Below, piece by piece: positions 4,976 through 33,620 of a DNA stretch of 33,831 bases. The number at the start of each line of letters is the position of its first letter. Within the stretch, counting starts at the first letter, position 1. This DNA comes from a virus (Duplodnaviria; Heunggongvirae; Uroviricota; Caudoviricetes): IMG/VR virus record IMGVR_UViG_2681813321_000006. One strand, written 5' to 3'. A model generated the notes under the pieces. That model worked only from the letters and a program-made list of their open reading frames with translations. It was not told the DNA's origin and did no database searches. The position numbers and the translations under genes were made by a program.

Positions 4976-6040
4976 CTATAATCCTCTCTGAAAAGCAGTG
5001 CTGGATGGCATATCCTGCGCACCGCGCGCTTCGCACATCATATCCATGTACCACGCCTGGCCCCTTGTATCGCCAGTGTACATAATCCCGCGCACAATAT
5101 AAACGCCATCCGTTGCGATGCTGGCAGGCTGCGATGTGGTGCCGCTTAGCGTAATATTTCCGTCCGTGTTCTGGTCGGTGATCTGCCCACCAGCCATAGC
5201 GATATCGTTGTTCGACAACGCGGTGCGATATACGGAAGCCTGATCCAGTTGAATGAGCCCATTAACCCGGATGTTCGGATTAATAAGCGCGCGAACGTTT
5301 ACGCCGTTGCCGATGGTCTGCTGCGGCATGCCAATAAGCCCGGTAGCGCTGTTGAGCACAATCGCTTCGTGAACATATTCATTATTCGCCACCATCTGGC
5401 GCTGACCGTCTACGAATTGCCATGTTGCGCCACATTGCCCGGCTACGTTATCCATTAGATGCCGCGTCATGCCAAAGAGCACCCGCCCCCGGGGGAATAC
5501 AGTAGCAGGCATTTCAGGCGTCAGGCCTTCGGTCGCACCTTTGGCTTCGAAGTCTTTCATCAGCGCACGGTTCACATCAGCGACCGTGTAACCGGCAGCC
5601 AGCGTCTGTGAGGTTATACTGGTGGCAAAAGCCAGATCAGTATCTGCTGCCTGAATCAGGACGTAGGAATCAACCGGACTGTCTTTTCCTGTAACCGAGT
5701 AGCGAATTTCACCGCTGAAAATCAGTCCGTAGTTGCGGCCATCACTCTGGCCCACGTCCGCCGCATCAACCTCCCGCACGATCCCGACGTCGCTTGCCGA
5801 CACCTCCGGCGCGATACCGTCGTAACCCGCAATCAGACGCACTTTCGAAAACTCCCGCCCGGTGATTCGGTTCACAGTATCTGCCGAGAGGTTATAAATT
5901 TTGATAGTCCCTACCCGGGACGCGCTGCTGATGTTGAACCAGTCGATCGTAAAGGTCACTTTAAAATCACTTAGCTCAATTCCCTGACCGTTCCCGTCCA
6001 CAAGCTGCAGCTCGAAATGTCTCATCCAGTTCTGTGACAT
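4976..6040 (-). CDS. Baseplate hub-like tail protein (P2 gpD / Mu gpP position)
   Basis: 354-aa ORF between the post-tape-measure ORFs and the spike gene. Positional/size call only. Confidence 0.4.
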   Translation of the reverse strand: MSQNWMRHFELQLVDGNGQGIELSDFKVTFTIDWFNISSASRVGTIKIYNLSADTVNRITGREFSKVRLIAGYDGIAPEVSASDVGIVREVDAADVGQSDGRNYGLIFSGEIRYSVTGKDSPVDSYVLIQAADTDLAFATSITSQTLAAGYTVADVNRALMKDFEAKGATEGLTPEMPATVFPRGRVLFGMTRHLMDNVAGQCGATWQFVDGQRQMVANNEYVHEAIVLNSATGLIGMPQQTIGNGVNVRALINPNIRVNGLIQLDQASVYRTALSNNDIAMAGGQITDQNTDGNITLSGTTSQPASIATDGVYIVRGIMYTGDTRGQAWYMDMMCEARGAQDMPSSTAFQRGL

Positions 6041-6042
6041 GC

Positions 6043-14863: not shown

Positions 14864-16084
14864 TTACCCTTTACGGTTTGCCCAGAATTCAGCGTTTTGT
14901 TTGTTCAGGGAAGCGATACTGGTCATGCCCATGTTTAGGCGCTGTGCATCGCCGGTGGTGGCGCGGGTGTTTCGCCCTTTGGCAATCTCAGACACGGCAT
15001 TAAACGCCATGTCGACCGATTGTTTCGGCAATTTGCGGATATCCGCATCACCGACTATCTGGCGAACCAGCGTTTTGTCAGCGGAAGCCAGAACCTCGCG
15101 TTTGAACGCGGTCGGTTTCATCTTACGGCTCAGATCGATACCCGGAACAATAACTTCGGCACGCCAGGCTGAGTCACCAGTAATCGTGGTTTCCTCTTCA
15201 TCGTCCTCGCCGTCACCGGTCGGATTATCGTCAGGCTTATTATCGTTATCGCCCGTGGCATTTCCTTCCAGCTTAGCCAGCAGGGCTTTCAGTAATGTTT
15301 TGAGGTCATCATCACTGTCGCCGGTTGGGCCTCCCCCCATCTCTGGTGCTTTGTCCGGTAGTGGTTGCTGCGGGGACAGGTTGATATTGAGATTAACGCC
15401 CTGCGGCAAATCCCCCTCATCTCCTGTAACCGATGCGGGAGCCGACTCCACCAGTTCGTTCATGGTGTCGGCATCTCCTGTCTTGATGGCCGCACGCATG
15501 CGGTTCCACCAGTTTTTCTTTTGATTTGCCATTGTGTCTCTGTCTCCAATTGCACAACGATTTCCGGCTCTGCCTTTAGGGACAAGAGCCACATGGTTTC
15601 CGGTAATATCGACCTGCTCAGCTTTACCTGGCTCGGTCTGCTCGTACTCCGCGTCATAGCCGCACGACACTTCGCGCAGGCCATCTTCGATAAGCTGAAT
15701 GGCGTTTTCGTCTTTGACGATAAGGTCAGCCAGCATCAAATCAGACTGCTCACCCGTCCCGCGCCGGACATTCTGGAGGTGCCCGACAGCAAGCTCTTTC
15801 CAGTTCTCGGGATTTACCAGCCGCACATTCCCGTTTTCATCTTCAGGATGCAGAATCGTGATGCTCATCCCTTCGAATGAGGCAAGCGTGGCCGGATGGA
15901 ATACCTGCTCAGGAGAACGCGTGACGACTATTTCACCGAACTTATCGGGTTTCAGTTTTGGCAGGTCATCAGCACCATAGAGCTGCTTACCTGTTCGTCC
16001 TATCGGCACGTCTCTGCACAGCAACGAGCCGTCAGCCAGCTGATAGCGGGTTTCCCCCAGCCGGGTATTGAAAAAATATTTCAT
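14864..16084 (-). CDS. Scaffold/protease-like head assembly protein with acidic low-complexity region
   Basis: 406-aa ORF between the gpF-like and capsid genes. Central Asp/Glu-rich segment with repeated TGD motifs (PTGDSDDD, ATGDNDNKPDDNPTGDGEDDEEETTITGD). Confidence 0.45.
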   Translation of the reverse strand: MKYFFNTRLGETRYQLADGSLLCRDVPIGRTGKQLYGADDLPKLKPDKFGEIVVTRSPEQVFHPATLASFEGMSITILHPEDENGNVRLVNPENWKELAVGHLQNVRRGTGEQSDLMLADLIVKDENAIQLIEDGLREVSCGYDAEYEQTEPGKAEQVDITGNHVALVPKGRAGNRCAIGDRDTMANQKKNWWNRMRAAIKTGDADTMNELVESAPASVTGDEGDLPQGVNLNINLSPQQPLPDKAPEMGGGPTGDSDDDLKTLLKALLAKLEGNATGDNDNKPDDNPTGDGEDDEEETTITGDSAWRAEVIVPGIDLSRKMKPTAFKREVLASADKTLVRQIVGDADIRKLPKQSVDMAFNAVSEIAKGRNTRATTGDAQRLNMGMTSIASLNKQNAEFWANRKG

Positions 16085-22388: not shown

Positions 22389-22564
22389 CAACTGAACTGC
22401 TGAATCACAGTAAGTAACATCTTCACTGTACAATTCTCGTTCAATCCGATGCCAAGTTGAGCCTTCATTGATGCGCCAATATTACCTTTGACCTGCAACG
22501 ACAGGTCTGGGTACCTCTGTTCCATGAAGCTTTCAAATCTGTTGCGAACGCTGATCAGAGCCAT
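22388..22564 (-). CDS. Small hypothetical protein (58 aa) immediately downstream of Q
   Basis: ATG at 22562-22564 with AAGGGA upstream, 31 nt after the Q stop. Product MALISVRNRFESFMEQRYPDLSLQVKGNIGASMKAQLGIGLNENCTVKMLLTVIQQFS. Below track cutoff; hand-translated. Confidence 0.3.
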   Translation of the reverse strand: MALISVRNRFESFMEQRYPDLSLQVKGNIGASMKAQLGIGLNENCTVKMLLTVIQQFS

Positions 22565-22595
22565 CTGGTTCCCTTACGTGATTGATTGCTGGATA

Positions 22596-23018
22596 TTATG
22601 CCGCCGAGCAGCTCCTACGCAAAGTCCTGATAGCCTGAGGCTTTGACTGAACCGACTGATCCATTTCGAGCACCACATCCAGCATGGCTAAGCAACCGTC
22701 AATAAATCCCTCTGCCGCCTGAAGCCTCTTCAGAACGTGGGTGTGAGATACGCCGAGCTTCTCACCCATCGCCCGCACGGGCATGGCCTGGACGTAATGC
22801 CACTCAAGGAGCGTGCACAGATACGGATCTTTTTTCTTCAGGCAGCTCATAGCGGAGTTGATGATAAGACCGTCATTGTCACTGCATTTCAGCCTTCCAG
22901 ACTGCGTCGCGGGTAGCAGATTCTTAAACCCGGCTGCAACAGGAGGAAAGTAGACGCTACCACCTTCACTCGCTGCCCAGCCACCCCAGCGCTCTAAAAC
23001 CTGTTGAATATTACGCAT
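22596..23018 (-). CDS. Q: Late-gene antiterminator, lambdoid Q-like
   Basis: 140 aa; N-terminal MRNIQQVLERWGGWAA... and overall pattern match my recollection of Phage_antitermQ-type proteins. Lies upstream of intrinsic terminators and the lysis cassette. ATG with GAGGT upstream. Confidence 0.75.
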   Translation of the reverse strand: MRNIQQVLERWGGWAASEGGSVYFPPVAAGFKNLLPATQSGRLKCSDNDGLIINSAMSCLKKKDPYLCTLLEWHYVQAMPVRAMGEKLGVSHTHVLKRLQAAEGFIDGCLAMLDVVLEMDQSVQSKPQAIRTLRRSCSAA

Positions 23019-23146
23019 AGCTCTGACCTCTACGTTTTGCTACGAAAAAATTTTCTGAGAACCACGTCTGTTTATCCGTGGGTGTGGATAACGCAGTTCC
23101 GATTCGCTTATTACACGCTGTTATGTGCAAAAAATTCCTTGTTCGG

Positions 23147-23319
23147 CCTGTACCAATCTGTACCCACCTGTACCAGCTCTTTTCAAACCTTTTCCCCAAG
23201 CGACTTATATATATATATGGGGTTCTTAGTAATTAGGTTGGTACAGATGGTACAGTTGGTACTGACCTTTAAATTCAATTAGTTAAAATGTACCAACCTC
23301 TATTTTGAGGCTGGTACAG
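23147..23319. repeat. Iteron-like array of the 7-mer CTGTACC/GGTACAG flanking a (TA)n tract; putative replication origin or regulator binding array
   Basis: Direct copies at about 23148, 23158, 23168 (10-bp phasing) and 23289; inverted copies at about 23240, 23249, 23258 (9-bp phasing) and 23313; TATATATATATAT at 23206-23218 between the arrays. Confidence 0.55.
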
Positions 23320-25492
23320 GTTGGGACACCGCCTCAAAAATTCGAGTCATTTTCCCCCCAATTCGCCTTTGGGCACGCTTATACCCGCAATTTTGCAAAA
23401 CATTACTAATTCGCATTTCTTCGCGTTTTCCGATGCGGTCAGGATTTAGCCCAATCGCATCACGCAAAACATCACTTGCGCGTAAAAATTCGCAATTTCG
23501 CGGAAGTTCATTAGTCATCAGGTCTGGCGTGTCGAGCCATTTCTCTACCGTTTCAAGCCAAGCATCCTTGATGGTGTACTGTTCATGGACACTCGCTGCC
23601 AGTTGTTCAGCCTCACGGAACTGGATACCCCCCAGACGCTGAAACACCTCACGAGCCTCAGCCCAAAGTAAAAGGAGATCTCTTTTTATCGCTTTCACGT
23701 CGACTTTCGACACTTCCACGGGGAGCCAGCGACGGTTACCAGTCTTGTCCGCAAGGAATTCGTCCTCATTGGTGGTACCAACGAACACCAGGCGACGAGG
23801 AAACTGGGTGGCGAACTCCCGGTATTTCGGGATCCAGTTTTCGTGAGTACGCGTCACAAACGCTTTGATTGACTCCAGCTCTTTGGTATTAAGTCCGCGC
23901 AGTTCACCAATCTCTGCCACCAGCCGACCACGCATTTTTCGAGCGAGATCATCGTCTTTTTCGGCAAAAGAGATTTCAGTAAAAAACGCAGGATCAGGGC
24001 TCAGTGCCTCCACTCCGGAAGACTTACCGCAGCCCTGCGGACCAACGAGGATCGGCACCATATCCGCTTTGATGCCTGGCTCCAGTACTCGCCCCGCCAA
24101 CGCGGTCCACATGTACATAGACACCGCACGGGTATAAGGCGTGTCGGCTGTACCGAAGTGCGTATGGTAGAAACATTCGATGCGCGGCACGCCATCCCAC
24201 TCCAGCCCGTTCAGCCAGGTAATCGCTGAATCGAATGGTTGTTCATCGGCTGCAAGTAACACCACATCGCGAATAAGTTCACGACCAACAGGTTTAAATC
24301 CCCGCTTTTCCATCGTGATGCGCAGGCGCGCATAATCCGCATCGGTGAATGCTCGCCATTGTCCGGATCCTGCAGAGGCAAACATGATTTCGTCGCGGAA
24401 CTGGTCAAAGCGAATATCGATGTCCACAAAATCAGGGCGTACTACTGCTTTGGCTGCGTTGCTGATGGTTGCCTCGATACGCCCCCATTTATCACGCTCG
24501 AAAGCAGGCAGCGGTAAAGGTTCCGCCACTTCGGTGCTGGTCAGATCTTCGAAATCGTCGTTGCGGATCCCGATGGCATTAAGGAAATCTCCGTCATCAC
24601 GATGCGCACAACTGGCATGCAGGCATTTAAAATGCCCCTGCTCAAAGCCCGCGGTTCCCGCAGGAAAATAAGCTGTGCTTGTTGGATCGCCCCCGCTACT
24701 GTGGCCGTCTTCAAACGGACAGCGGATATATCGTTCACCATTTGCGCCATCCAGCAGCGTCCAGCCATTGGCATCAAGATATTCAGCTGTATCATCCGTC
24801 GCGCCGGGCGTGAATGCTGATCGGTCGCGCATCTTCGTGTTGCCCGCTTCGGTGGTTACCGACACAGGGAGTTGTTCAGCCAGGCGCTGCCACAGCGTTT
24901 CAAGCTGCTCACCAGTAATAGCCGGAGGTTCATCCGGCAAACCACCGTCCCATTCAATACGCGCGCCGCTGCTGTGCGTACCACAGGCAACGAACTGCTG
25001 CCCGTTCGCCAGCAACTCGATAATGCCCATATCCCCCGCCAGGCGATGGATACGCTTACAGAAATCACCATCAACGGCCAGCAGATACAGACACTTATTA
25101 CTGTTTGCTCGCCAGCGTCGCGGCGGCAACTCCCCCAGAAGTTGCACAAGCGTTTTGCGAATATCTGCCTGAATGTCTTCATCTTCGCTATCGCAGTCCA
25201 GCGCCAGCCAGCCATGGCCTGTACGCACGCAGATGCCATAATCCGGTTCATTCGACCAGCGGGCAAAATCATGCTCAGTAACAACATACCCGGTCCATTG
25301 AGCAATACCGGTGACCTGGCGGTCCCGGTTATAGCGACTTGGCGTCTTACCCAGCGCTTTCAGTTTACTATCAGGGGATATGGTCGCACCGGGGTTACAT
25401 ACAACTGGGAGAAGATGATCAGTTCTCCCCAATACCAGGTCGAAATGAAACCACTCATCAGGCGTAGCTCCCCATGGTTTGCTATCGGACAT
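23300..25492 (-). CDS. Primase-helicase (N-terminal prim-pol-like domain, C-terminal P-loop D5/VirE-type ATPase)
   Basis: 730 aa. Walker A GPQGCGKS and Walker B-like RRLVFVGTTNEDE in the C-terminal half. N-terminal LALDCDSED (DxD) and CGTHSSG motifs fit AEP prim-pol domains. Start coupled 3 nt after the cro-like stop. Confidence 0.7.
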   Translation of the reverse strand: MSDSKPWGATPDEWFHFDLVLGRTDHLLPVVCNPGATISPDSKLKALGKTPSRYNRDRQVTGIAQWTGYVVTEHDFARWSNEPDYGICVRTGHGWLALDCDSEDEDIQADIRKTLVQLLGELPPRRWRANSNKCLYLLAVDGDFCKRIHRLAGDMGIIELLANGQQFVACGTHSSGARIEWDGGLPDEPPAITGEQLETLWQRLAEQLPVSVTTEAGNTKMRDRSAFTPGATDDTAEYLDANGWTLLDGANGERYIRCPFEDGHSSGGDPTSTAYFPAGTAGFEQGHFKCLHASCAHRDDGDFLNAIGIRNDDFEDLTSTEVAEPLPLPAFERDKWGRIEATISNAAKAVVRPDFVDIDIRFDQFRDEIMFASAGSGQWRAFTDADYARLRITMEKRGFKPVGRELIRDVVLLAADEQPFDSAITWLNGLEWDGVPRIECFYHTHFGTADTPYTRAVSMYMWTALAGRVLEPGIKADMVPILVGPQGCGKSSGVEALSPDPAFFTEISFAEKDDDLARKMRGRLVAEIGELRGLNTKELESIKAFVTRTHENWIPKYREFATQFPRRLVFVGTTNEDEFLADKTGNRRWLPVEVSKVDVKAIKRDLLLLWAEAREVFQRLGGIQFREAEQLAASVHEQYTIKDAWLETVEKWLDTPDLMTNELPRNCEFLRASDVLRDAIGLNPDRIGKREEMRISNVLQNCGYKRAQRRIGGKMTRIFEAVSQPVPASK

Positions 25493-25495
25493 GGG

Positions 25496-25708
25496 TTAAG
25501 CCTTTTTATCGTTTTGTGAGCCATACAACAGCCAATTAGGGTCGCAATCCAATGCTATAGACATTTCAAGAAGATAACGTGGCCGAGCAATAACACCACT
25601 TTCAATTCTGTTTATTGCCTGCTGGCTCACTCCTGTGAGCTCAGCCAACGTAACTTGCGTCATTTTGAGTTCTTTACGTCGTTCTTTTACTCGGGTCGCT
25701 AAGGTCAT
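25496..25708 (-). CDS. Cro-like HTH regulator (XRE family)
   Basis: Track start 25726 is TTG; ATG 25706-25708 has GAGGTG upstream. HTH MTQVTLAELTGVSQQAINRIESG. Divergent from the CI-like gene. Confidence 0.65.
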   Translation of the reverse strand: MTLATRVKERRKELKMTQVTLAELTGVSQQAINRIESGVIARPRYLLEMSIALDCDPNWLLYGSQNDKKA

Positions 25709-25828
25709 TGCTTTCACCTCATACAATTTTAGTGGTATTTAGCAACAACAAATGAGGTTTGTCAAATACAACAAAAATTGTTTTTAATGTGGGTATACAC
25801 ATTAATACAACCCAGAAGGACTAATCCC
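25709..25828. promoter_or_regulatory. Divergent cro/cI control region with operator-like repeats
   Basis: 120-bp AT-rich intergenic region. Perfect inverted repeat TTAATGTG-ggtata-CACATTAA at 25784-25805. ATACAA recurs at about 25721, 25766 and 25805. Confidence 0.5.
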
Positions 25829-26452
25829 ATGTCTCTCGCAGCCCGTTTTAAAGCACGTCGTTTGGAATTAGGAATGACTCAAGTGGAAGTAGCGAATTCT
25901 GCAGGGGTTAGCCAACAATCCATAGAATCCATCGAAAGTGGACGAACCAGAAAGCCACGCAATCTTCTGGATCTGGCTAAGGCCTTGAAATGTAGCCCAG
26001 ACTGGCTACTGAACGGTAAAAATATTATGCCTCTCGCGGAGATAAGTACCAGACGCATACCTATATTAAGTTACGTTCAGGCAGGAGAGCTTACAGAAGC
26101 AAGAGACATAACAGATCTGACAGGGGAATTTGAATATATTTTGGCAGACTCTGACATTCCAGAAACATGCTTCGCATTACGTATTGATGGCGACAGCATG
26201 CAACCAGAGTTTAAAGAAGGAGACATTGTTATCATCGATCCTGATCTATGTCCTGCACCAGGGGAGTTTGTTGTCGCCAAAAACGACGGTCACGAAGCTA
26301 CATTTAAAAAATACCGTCCATTAGGAATCGGCATCGACGACTTTGAATTAATCCCCCTAAATCCTGATTACCCTATTTTTCGTAGTGCAGATATGAACTT
26401 ACAGATCATAGGTGTAATGATCGAACACCGTATTTACCGCCGTAAACGTTAG
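25829..26452 (+). CDS. CI-like repressor (HTH plus S24/LexA-type autopeptidase domain)
   Basis: Refined ATG 25829 with GAAGGA upstream. N-terminal HTH MTQVEVANSAGVSQQSIESIESG; C-terminal GDSM (catalytic Ser) and downstream Lys (VVAKNDGHEATFKKY) as in lambda CI/LexA. Confidence 0.8.
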   Translation: MSLAARFKARRLELGMTQVEVANSAGVSQQSIESIESGRTRKPRNLLDLAKALKCSPDWLLNGKNIMPLAEISTRRIPILSYVQAGELTEARDITDLTGEFEYILADSDIPETCFALRIDGDSMQPEFKEGDIVIIDPDLCPAPGEFVVAKNDGHEATFKKYRPLGIGIDDFELIPLNPDYPIFRSADMNLQIIGVMIEHRIYRRKR

Positions 26453-26471
26453 TATTCCCACCGTAAATATC

Positions 26472-26491
26472 GGGAGGCGTAACAGCCTCCC
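26472..26491 (+). terminator. Stem-loop downstream of cI (terminator-like, weak U-tract)
   Basis: GGGAGGC-gtaaca-GCCTCCC, 7-bp perfect stem, 20 nt after the cI stop; followed by TTACCCCATTTG rather than a clean T-run. Confidence 0.4.
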
Positions 26492-26498
26492 TTACCCC

Positions 26499-26518
26499 AT
26501 TTGTAAAGTCTTACAAAT
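26499..26518. promoter_or_regulatory. 20-bp palindromic operator-like site ATTTGTAA-agtc-TTACAAAT
   Basis: 8-bp perfect inverted arms, 4-bp spacer, immediately after the cI-distal hairpin and upstream of the rightward replication operon. A related inverted repeat ATACAA-N6-TTGTAT lies at about 26587-26604. Confidence 0.45.
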
Positions 26519-30036: not shown

Positions 30037-30054
30037 TACTGATTAGGCGTATAA

Positions 30055-30684
30055 TCACTCAGGAATCTTAATCTTTCTCAATTCTTTATTTAGTTCACAG
30101 ATCTTTTTCTTAGACGGGAAAGTATCATACATCCAAAAACCAACAGTCTCTAAAACTATTATCATAACCATATACACAAGATAATTTAAAAGGCCTTCAT
30201 TTTGCCCTATGGAAATAATGCAGATAATAGAAAAAAGGGTAAACAGCACAAAACACAGAAAGGAAAACAGACGACTAATAATAAATAAAAAACCTGAAAA
30301 ATCAACATTAATAAAAAACACTCCGTTATCTTTCTCTATATAATTCTGAAGCTTAATCAACTGATTTATATACTGTCTTTTTTCTAATCTATTGCAAATG
30401 TAAATAACATCTCTTCGGTTATAAGATGATTGCAATTTCAGCGCATCACGAATAATTTTATCATTTATTCTTTTTTCTATGGCACTCTTATCCTCCTCAT
30501 CCAGATAACGTTCATACTTAACTAAATATAAAATTAACTTCTTAACATATTTAGGCTCTTTATACTTATAATTAAAAATGATCTTTCTTATCCAGACTCC
30601 CATAACAATCAAACATGAAAAAATATATCCAGCTATTTTCTCCAGATGCTCTGTATGGTCAATCAAGTATTGGATCATATGCAT
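30055..30684 (-). CDS. AT-rich multi-pass membrane protein inserted antisense in the replication operon (moron; candidate exclusion/abortive-infection effector)
   Basis: 209-aa ORF at about 28-30% G+C (hand count) versus about 60% in the flanking polymerase gene. Hydrophobic segments IAGYIFSCLIVMGVWI, FLFIISRLFSFLCFVLFTLFSIICIISI, LLNYLVYMVMIIVLETVGFW; Lys/Tyr-rich cytoplasmic region. Opposite strand to both neighbours. Confidence 0.55.
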   Translation of the reverse strand: MHMIQYLIDHTEHLEKIAGYIFSCLIVMGVWIRKIIFNYKYKEPKYVKKLILYLVKYERYLDEEDKSAIEKRINDKIIRDALKLQSSYNRRDVIYICNRLEKRQYINQLIKLQNYIEKDNGVFFINVDFSGFLFIISRLFSFLCFVLFTLFSIICIISIGQNEGLLNYLVYMVMIIVLETVGFWMYDTFPSKKKICELNKELRKIKIPE

Positions 30685-30730
30685 AATTAATCTTTTAATC
30701 AGTTAATAGAATAAAAACCAAGGTAAACAC

Positions 30731-32858: not shown

Positions 32859-33620
32859 ATGCAGGAACTAACTGAAATGCCGATCACCTATCCATACCCG
32901 AGAGAAACTTTTCCTGACTTTTTGAGGGAGTGTGGGTTCACCAATTTTTCCCACGAACAGCGTGAGACTTGTGACTGCTATCGTTTAACGAATGGCGTAA
33001 TTGTTAACCTTTACACCACCCGGACCATTCAGTTTCAAGGTAACCCTCAAGAACGTCCCAATGTTGAAACTGCAATAATGACCCATTTAGGAACGCCGCC
33101 CACGGCAACACCACTAGCCGTAGAACAGCCATCTGAGCTCCCCAAAAAGATATTCATTGTTCACGGCCATGACCATACTGCAAAGGAGCAACTTGAGCTA
33201 ATCCTTCATAAACTTGGATTACCAGACCATTTCATTTTGCAGAATACGGGAGGGACTGGACTCACCATTATTGAAGAGCTTGAACGTGAAATTGGGCAAG
33301 GACAAACTGCTACCCGTTTCGGGATTGTTCTTTTGACACCTGATGATATGGGATACTCAAAGCGCGCCGGTGAAGCAGAAATCCAACCCCGCGCAAGACA
33401 GAACGTTGTACTCGAGATGGGTATGCTTCTTTCGTCCTTAGGGCGCAGCAATGTAGCAATCCTTCAGAAACAGCACCTAGAACAGCCTTCTGATGCTAAC
33501 GGGATTTTGTATCTGAATTTCAACGACCATGTACGTGAAACAGTTCCTCGTCTAGTGCAACGGTTACAAAATTCTGGTTTCGAATTTACACAAGCTCAAA
33601 TAGCTAACGCTTCCTCGTAA
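32859..33620 (+). CDS. Two-domain protein: unknown Cys-containing N-terminal domain plus C-terminal TIR-like (COG4271-type) domain
   Basis: 253 aa, AAAGGAA RBS. C-terminal region KKIFIVHGHD...RFGIVLLTPDD...RARQNVVLEMGML matches my recollection of the TIR-like nucleotide-binding family signature. N-terminal about 95 aa with ETCDCYR. Assignment not verified by search. Confidence 0.5.
   Translation: MQELTEMPITYPYPRETFPDFLRECGFTNFSHEQRETCDCYRLTNGVIVNLYTTRTIQFQGNPQERPNVETAIMTHLGTPPTATPLAVEQPSELPKKIFIVHGHDHTAKEQLELILHKLGLPDHFILQNTGGTGLTIIEELEREIGQGQTATRFGIVLLTPDDMGYSKRAGEAEIQPRARQNVVLEMGMLLSSLGRSNVAILQKQHLEQPSDANGILYLNFNDHVRETVPRLVQRLQNSGFEFTQAQIANASS

Follow-up and report, generated by a model that had tools for sequence, protein, structure and literature searches.

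The repeat array at positions 23149-23328 is very probably the lytic replication origin of a temperate phage, which would be recognised by the phage's own Prim-Pol/SF3-helicase initiator, VapE, via a winged helix. This iteron-origin reading, already put forward in the original prediction, is supported by computed evidence, namely the linkage of the array to VapE, the co-variation of the wing with the repeated word, the homology with SaPI Rep and the low stability of the duplex. We conclude that the array would be an origin of the SaPI/PICI and pRN1/BPP-1 type, i.e., of a kind which is already known, to which we add a proposed exchangeable cassette and the assignment for this prophage family and for APSE. 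Among the papers searched, none had described the array before, either in this prophage family or in APSE.

The window (the whole stretch of DNA analysed, 33,831 nucleotides) is part of an E. coli prophage. Its segment 22900-23500 (601 bp, spanning the array) is 100% identical to FDAARGOS_1059, where the prophage adjoins yfhL (identity was checked over these 601 bp), and of 5426 complete E. coli genomes, 140 carry prophages that match this segment. The element has terminase, portal, capsid, sheath, tube, baseplate and lysis genes, and a divergent operon with DUF2800, DUF2815 and DNA polymerase A, to which the FDAARGOS_1059 record adds VRR-NUC, a DEAD-box helicase and an integrase. Beyond the DNA polymerase gene there is a TIR-domain gene, possibly anti-phage defence cargo, and the relative in ETEC-2264 has different cargo beyond its polymerase gene. 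In the FDAARGOS_1059 record, two virion genes (L001 2079-3142 and 11966-13185, approx. window 4978-6041 and 14865-16084) and an ANR-family regulator gene are annotated as frameshifted, so this prophage copy may be defective (the identity of the window to the record being verified over 601 bp). The genes around the array are as follows, the gap between VapE and Q being 281 bp and the lysis and virion genes lying beyond Q on the minus strand:

25778-26452, plus strand: S24 repressor gene, divergent (from the prophage gene order).
25496-25726, minus strand: Cro-like HTH gene (from the prophage gene order).
23300-25492, minus strand: initiator gene for a 730-aa Prim-Pol/VapE helicase/winged-helix protein (Pfam, PHROG, PDB match and AF2).
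22596-23018, minus strand: Q antiterminator gene, the downstream neighbour, outside the origin module (PF06530, E 5e-42).

VapE contains a Prim-Pol domain (PF09250, E 3.2e-9, 37.9 bits versus the curated cut-off of 22.8, also precomputed for close homologues) and a VapE/D5-like helicase core (PF05272, E 2e-60), it matches the helicase and primase families of PHROG, and its residues 384-657 match 7pds_A, i.e., SaPI1 Rep, described as 'similar to D. nodosus vapE' (phmmer, E 7e-34). For the C-terminal region there is no Pfam match; a winged helix is predicted there by an AF2 model of residues 625-730 with moderate confidence (pLDDT 77), in which the strands of the wing hairpin, residues 80-87 and 90-97 of the modelled fragment, correspond to VapE residues 704-711 and 714-721. 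A Foldseek search with the winged-helix model gave no significant match (best E 0.04), and a P4 alpha chain was found neither above the sequence threshold nor among the structural matches listed. The second strand of the hairpin is of particular concern here:

23330-23353, minus strand: second wing strand beta3, codons 714-721 (KMTRIFEA), a class-specific segment which co-varies with the iteron word.

The overlap of the array with the 3' end of the primase-helicase gene, which had been claimed from the outset, is confirmed: the reading frame ends with the TAG at 23302-23300, the array straddles this stop codon, and iterons 1 and 2 (23309-23328, direct, 10 bp apart) lie inside the last nine VapE codons. 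The array is composed of nine 10-mers with the consensus TGTACCAACC (six exact in the 7-mer and three with one mismatch), and its order in gene sense is two direct iterons and one inverted, an AT spacer, three direct iterons (9 bp), an AT-rich core of approx. 57 bp and three inverted iterons (10 bp):

23319-23328, minus strand: iteron 1, TGTCCCAACC (degenerate), inside the VapE reading frame.
23309-23318, minus strand: iteron 2, TGTACCAGCC, inside the VapE reading frame; left arm of the stop-codon hairpin.
23289-23298, plus strand: iteron 3, TGTACCAACC, inverted with respect to iterons 1 and 2; right arm of the stop-codon hairpin.
23265-23288: AT-rich spacer A, 24 bp, 83% A+T, separating the iterons at the stop codon from the left arm.
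23236-23263, minus strand: iterons 4-6 (AGTACCAAC, TGTACCATC and TGTACCAACC), direct in gene sense with 9-bp spacing, pointing to the TA tract.
23179-23235: central AT-rich core, a candidate DNA-unwinding element, in gene sense TAATTACTAAGAACCCCATATATATATATAAGTCGCTTGGGGAAAAGGTTTGAAAAGA; 57 bp, 66% A+T, with (TA)6 at 23206-23218.
23149-23178, plus strand: iterons 7-9 (TGTACCAATC, TGTACCCACC and TGTACCAGCT on the plus strand), inverted with respect to iterons 4-6, with 10-bp spacing, pointing back to the TA tract.

The exact 7-mer CTGTACC/GGTACAG occurs at 23148, 23158 and 23168 on the plus strand, which are the three direct copies at 10-bp spacing expected in the right arm, and at 23240, 23249 and 23313 on the minus strand, while GGTACTG at 23258, ATGTACC at 23288/9 and GGGACAC at 23322 have one mismatch each. 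The repeat cluster is real, although the "eight or more" copies of the original prediction amount to six exact ones, the other three being one-mismatch copies. Three inverted copies at 9-bp spacing are likewise present in the left arm (the third, at 23258, with its one mismatch), and the TA-repeat TATATATATATAT was found where it had been placed, at 23206-23218. Six exact copies within 172 bp (23148-23319) compare with 2.27 +/- 1.58 expected from shuffles for the whole 33.8-kb window, and with up to one mismatch allowed there are nine matches within 200 bp, versus a mean of 3.5 and a maximum of six in 200 Markov-simulated windows.

The array is the only iteron cluster in the window. Isolated exact copies of CTGTACC lie outside it at 471, 1556, 2293, 4799, 6435, 14839, 18910 and 24148 (n = 8, which is above chance, since the shuffles expect approx. 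2 window-wide). All five copies within the part that aligns to the ETEC-2264 prophage, which has a different iteron word, are unchanged there, and on this ground the scattered copies were rejected as a second cis site (like crr of P4); they are probably a matter of compositional or coding bias and not binding sites.

Regarding duplex stability, 23205-23305 ranks fourth from the bottom among the 100-bp stretches of the window (z = 3.3), with only the low-GC cargo region at approx. 30 kb being lower, and the 20-bp window 23269-23289 (spacer A) has a stability z of 3.1. The least stable DNA of the window lies in a strongly AT-rich cargo block (noted together with the TIR-domain gene at 30050-30720 and 32859-33620), which overlaps an opposite-strand hypothetical gene, as placed by offset from L001. 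The cumulative GC skew of the window falls steadily through the array and levels off only beyond approx. 28 kb; it turns neither at the array nor at cI/cro and is uninformative.

The array was compared among 80 IMG/VR relatives with VapE proteins 72-100% identical, which represent 66 distinct downstream regions. Among the 66 distinct relatives the commonest orientation pattern is >><>>><<<, mostly with 7-10 iterons; the equivalent of the left arm (iterons 4-6) has 9-bp spacing in 105 of 107 adjacent pairs, and the equivalent of the right arm (iterons 7-9) has 10-bp spacing in 50 of 67. The start-to-start distance of the arms across the core is constant at 68-74 bp in the loci inspected individually, and the AT-rich core is conserved across iteron classes in the enterobacterial relatives. 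When compared with a relative of the same class whose VapE is approx. 77% identical, the iteron positions are 92% identical versus 69-72% elsewhere. With respect to the phasing of the 7-mer in relatives, the 9-bp and 10-bp spacing and the orientation are kept, but the word itself varies, in at least nine classes.

Across these approx. 80 relatives, distant phages and a small plasmid, the array travels with VapE and not with Q. The same layout is present 3' of the homologous gene in APSE-8 (a Hamiltonella phage), in Yersinia YeP4, in Acidovorax ACF1 (protein 57% identical over the C-terminal half) and in Caulobacter Jess A (protein 45% identical), which is classified in the BPP-1 genus. These four phages differ in their virion modules, which are annotated as sheath/tube/baseplate here, as P22-type portal in APSE and as Rauchvirus for Jess A. 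In APSE-8 (LR794148, L002 4830-5120), TGTACCAACC iterons lie between the VapE gene and Q, and the array has grown to a double unit, nearly palindromic, with a TATATATATA tract at its centre. In the APSE-8 record, a 'putative origin' is placed in the repressor-cro interval (L002 2265-2365), which we traced to originX; because originX is an oligomer-skew tool, with no experiment behind the call, this annotation was discounted as counter-evidence.

The plasmid pLAO97 (NZ_OP242302, 10.2 kb, E. coli, non-mobilizable) encodes a 461-aa VapE protein without the Prim-Pol domain, and the features examined include no other obvious gene for replication. At 2648-2990, 3' of the VapE gene, there are a separate terminator-like hairpin, approx. 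seven direct GTTCCACCC iterons, approx. 110 bp of AT-rich DNA and inverted copies, which is suggestive of a plasmid replicating on VapE and its ori alone. Approx. 25 similar plasmids of 10-33 kb, from Serratia, Klebsiella, Yersinia, Citrobacter, Enterobacter, Arsenophonus and E. coli, look like an untyped replicon family of the same design. As the array follows VapE across phages and a plasmid, it goes with the replication gene, rather than with the immunity region, the packaging module or Q. A packaging (pac) or partition site would also be expected to show repeated words for protein binding in a non-coding gap; however, the array is tied to the replication gene across differing structural and packaging modules, partition genes are not present, and the gene for the terminase small subunit is approx. 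2.6 kb off, so such a site is highly improbable.

The single strand of the array folds at -33.1 kcal/mol (z = -4.8 vs. shuffles), and the origin could in principle act by extruding a large stem-loop or cruciform, which has been proposed for pRN1 and BIP-1/BPP-1, the 'iterons' then being merely the arms of an inverted repeat. In pRN1, whose rep gene encodes a Prim-Pol/SF3/winged-helix protein, a stem-loop of 100 nt on the 3' side of this gene is necessary and sufficient and is the likely origin, and in BIP-1 similar stem-loops are predicted 3' of the rep gene, a large one and a small one containing the gene end (PMC4234260). Jess A, as a member of the BPP-1 genus, provides a connection, since it shows the layout of the array. 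However, good single-strand folding follows trivially from the iterons being opposed, while the spacing of 9 bp in one arm and 10 bp in the other, which is kept from E. coli to Caulobacter phages, would put bulges into any hairpin and fits the geometry of a protein on duplex DNA better than it fits hairpin extrusion. In addition, selection acts on the word in all copies, including copies in the same orientation that are unable to pair, and the homologous SaPI Reps bind duplex iterons. The pRN1 element is described as a stem-loop without iterons, the evidence for BIP-1 is folding prediction only, and the repeated word, its spacing and the wing co-variation argue for iterons here. We regard an extruded stem-loop as unlikely.

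In RNA, iterons 2 and 3 form a hairpin (23289-23318, minus strand) of 12 bp with a 6-nt loop containing the VapE stop codon (-23.5 kcal/mol), after which follows UUUUAAC. It is plausible that this is a weak terminator which could attenuate transcription into Q. A scan of the VapE-Q gap found no promoter on the gene strand, and the single plus-strand match (23262-23289) is within chance expectation; as Q has no convincing promoter of its own beyond the array, its transcription probably comes by read-through across the array. An Rfam scan of 22400-23900 gave a chance-level match only (c4-a1b1, E 0.42). Both the hairpin and the missing Q promoter would suit an array that binds VapE without being an origin, i.e., for autoregulation, copy-number control ('handcuffing') or as a roadblock or terminator that times Q, with initiation elsewhere. 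In iteron plasmids the same repeats also act in control, and since a second helicase and further replication genes are present in the phage, it may initiate at another site. On the other hand, the T-run after the hairpin is missing in GGAACC, the commonest class (CCTTGCAGACC), and the six iterons 4-9 are located past the hairpin, on either side of the AT-rich core, an arrangement for which a terminator has no need. Moreover, relatives with a downstream gene other than Q keep this array, and a comparable one lies 3' of the VapE gene of the small plasmid. It is quite unlikely that the array binds VapE for such purposes only; a secondary terminator or timing role of the stop-codon hairpin, beside the origin function, is possible.

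The Q leader holds a perfect DnaA box, TTATCCACA, at 23083-23091 (minus strand), 56 bp beyond iteron 9, which is the only one in the 33.8-kb window. Of the 23 distinct downstream regions of the Q type among the relatives, 13 have a perfect box, and of the 41 relatives with another downstream gene, 40 lack it, and so it belongs to the Q-leader module and not to the iteron cassette. Its role may be in host DnaA help at the origin or in the control of Q.

The iteron words found among the relatives (at least nine) are TGTACCA, TGGAACC, TGTAACC, TGTTACC, TGTATCC, TAGACAA, TAGACCA, TGTCCCA and TGTCCCC, and within each phage all copies share one word. The wing motif (residues 715-719 in beta3, after a conserved GK) fits the word in 76 of 76 loci when conservative variants are allowed, with MTRIF paired with GTACCA, KCKVW with GGAACC, VQRVW with GTAACC, LMKVW with GTTACC, VLKVW with GTATCC, QQRVF with TAGACAA, QIRVW with TAGACCA and KMRIF with GTCCCA. 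Mutual information between the columns of the VapE alignment and the iteron class peaks at residues 699-730. Neither the Cro type nor the downstream gene (Q or an unrelated 91-aa ORF) follows the word: one Cro type occurs with eight iteron classes and one downstream-gene type with eight of the nine. On a tree of VapE residues 1-690, approx. 32 changes of iteron class are needed versus a minimum of eight, which means that the cassette moved many times. The most direct comparison is with the ETEC-2264 prophage, which is 97.6% identical over 30 kb and shares its CI, Cro and Q accessions with the FDAARGOS_1059 prophage:

23104-23349: specificity cassette, 246 bp, the only block diverged from ETEC-2264 across Q, VapE, cro and cI.

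This block holds 86 of the 99 mismatches of 22500-26500 and contains the beta3 wing codons together with all nine iterons, with TGTACC being replaced by TGGAACC in ETEC-2264.

The original prediction had offered, as an alternative to an origin, a multi-site binding array for a regulator in front of Q, and in a wider form the array would be an operator for CI, Cro, Q or another DNA-binding protein of the phage that controls Q. The position upstream of Q is the only point in its favour. CI, Cro and Q were rejected as the iteron binder, because identical proteins coexist with different iterons, as in the two prophages above, which differ in all nine. The array is unchanged where the downstream gene is not Q and is altered where Q and its leader are identical, and the regulator alternative does not survive this. 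One Cro type and one downstream-gene type each accompany many words, as given above, the array follows VapE in phages and in a plasmid without Q, and the cI-cro intergenic region has no copy of the iteron word. An operator array of this kind is extremely doubtful.

With the array assigned to VapE, the question is what sets its word. The wing codons end 2 bp before iteron 1, and because of this adjacency, with recombination crossing only in conserved flanks, part of the 1:1 association of wing and word could be hitch-hiking. A universal wing-to-word code was rejected, since APSE-8 combines the TGTACCAACC word with another wing (VCRVW). It is well possible, although we stop somewhat short of calling it probable, that the beta3 strand (residues 715-720) and the three central iteron bases form a natural exchangeable specificity cassette, giving at least nine orthogonal initiator/origin pairs in near-identical enterobacterial prophages, which would be kept by selection against cross-firing of co-resident phages or against satellite piracy.

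At the level of sequence, the element shows each of the features expected of a SaPI/PICI replicon, within a complete phage. It is known that SaPI Reps, which have been characterised by experiment, are self-loading helicases whose C-terminal winged helix binds 6-12 iterons directly 3' of rep, and that these iterons surround an AT-rich centre, with at least two per side in opposite directions (PMC9371898); PICIs of E. coli have the same origin layout, and the pri-ori module of EcCICFT073 supports plasmid maintenance (PMC6092414). Correspondingly, VapE has an SF3-type hexameric helicase of the Rep type (by the PF05272 and 7pds_A matches given above) and a predicted C-terminal winged helix, the iterons are directly 3' of the reading frame (23328 to 23149, with the stop at 23300-23302), opposed sets (4-6 and 7-9) surround the AT-rich centre 23179-23235, and primase and helicase are fused, as in PriRep5. 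The differences are that this is a complete temperate phage with virion genes and not a helper-dependent satellite, i.e., a PICI-like replicon but not a PICI, that the primase domain is a Prim-Pol (AEP type), that the first iterons overlap the reading frame and encode its tail, and that there is a conserved 9/10-bp arm asymmetry with an extra convergent iteron group at the stop codon. With pRN1 ORF904 and BPP-1/BIP-1, VapE shares the same order of three domains (Prim-Pol, SF3 helicase and winged helix), the Prim-Pol being N-terminal here as well, and the cis element is directly 3' of the gene, with a small hairpin at the gene end followed by a large inverted repeat.

In the lambdoid phages, the iterons of ori-lambda adjoin an AT-rich tract within or at the gene for the initiator, where the early transcript passes, and related phages swap their initiator-iteron specificity as a module; the array described here is alike in these points, its specificity module being a proposed one. 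However, O of the lambdoid phages is neither a helicase nor a primase, it recruits the host DnaB through P, its DNA binding is N-terminal and its iterons are mid-gene, whereas here the initiator is a primase-helicase with a C-terminal class-specific segment, and the system does not conform to the lambda-O type. P4 needs two separated cis regions, ori and crr, while one iteron cluster only is present in this window, and the winged helix of P4 alpha reportedly reads an octamer iteron (type I, ori/crr). P4 alpha resembles VapE as one polypeptide with primase, SF3-like helicase and C-terminal winged-helix origin-binding domain, but its primase is of the bacterial Toprim type in contrast to Prim-Pol here (PMC4234260).

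From homology and co-variation, we infer the binding, melting, double-hexamer assembly, priming and direction of replication as follows. The early rightward-type transcript of cro, VapE and Q would yield VapE, whose C-terminal winged helix would bind the TGTACCAACC iterons, with the conserved flanks (TG...CC/ACC) probably read by the invariant recognition helix and the variable central bases probably by the beta3 strand (715-720). Since iterons 4-6 and 7-9 are opposed across approx. 57 bp of AT-rich DNA with (TA)6, two helicase rings would assemble head-to-head and melt the centre. Priming would be performed by the Prim-Pol domain and extension by the phage DNA polymerase A of the divergent operon. 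Iterons 1-3 at the stop codon would represent an extra convergent site and, as RNA, a plausible weak terminator before Q.

The origin position is hereby assigned, at the strength given at the outset, for a widespread enterobacterial prophage family, and extended to APSE, the defensive phage of aphid symbionts. The origin layout regarded as 'PICI-specific' (PMC6092414) is common to this prophage family, APSE, BPP-1-like phages and small plasmids, which joins SaPI Rep, pRN1/BPP-1 and these VapE proteins in one initiator-origin design. As an extension, with Q behind the origin and the hairpin, occupancy of the origin could couple late-gene timing to replication. The cassette swaps provide a clean hypothesis for the wing setting the iteron specificity, with nine candidate orthogonal origin/initiator pairs, and if it is true, the wing/iteron cassette would be a compact, readable protein-DNA recognition code and a ready set of orthogonal replicons.
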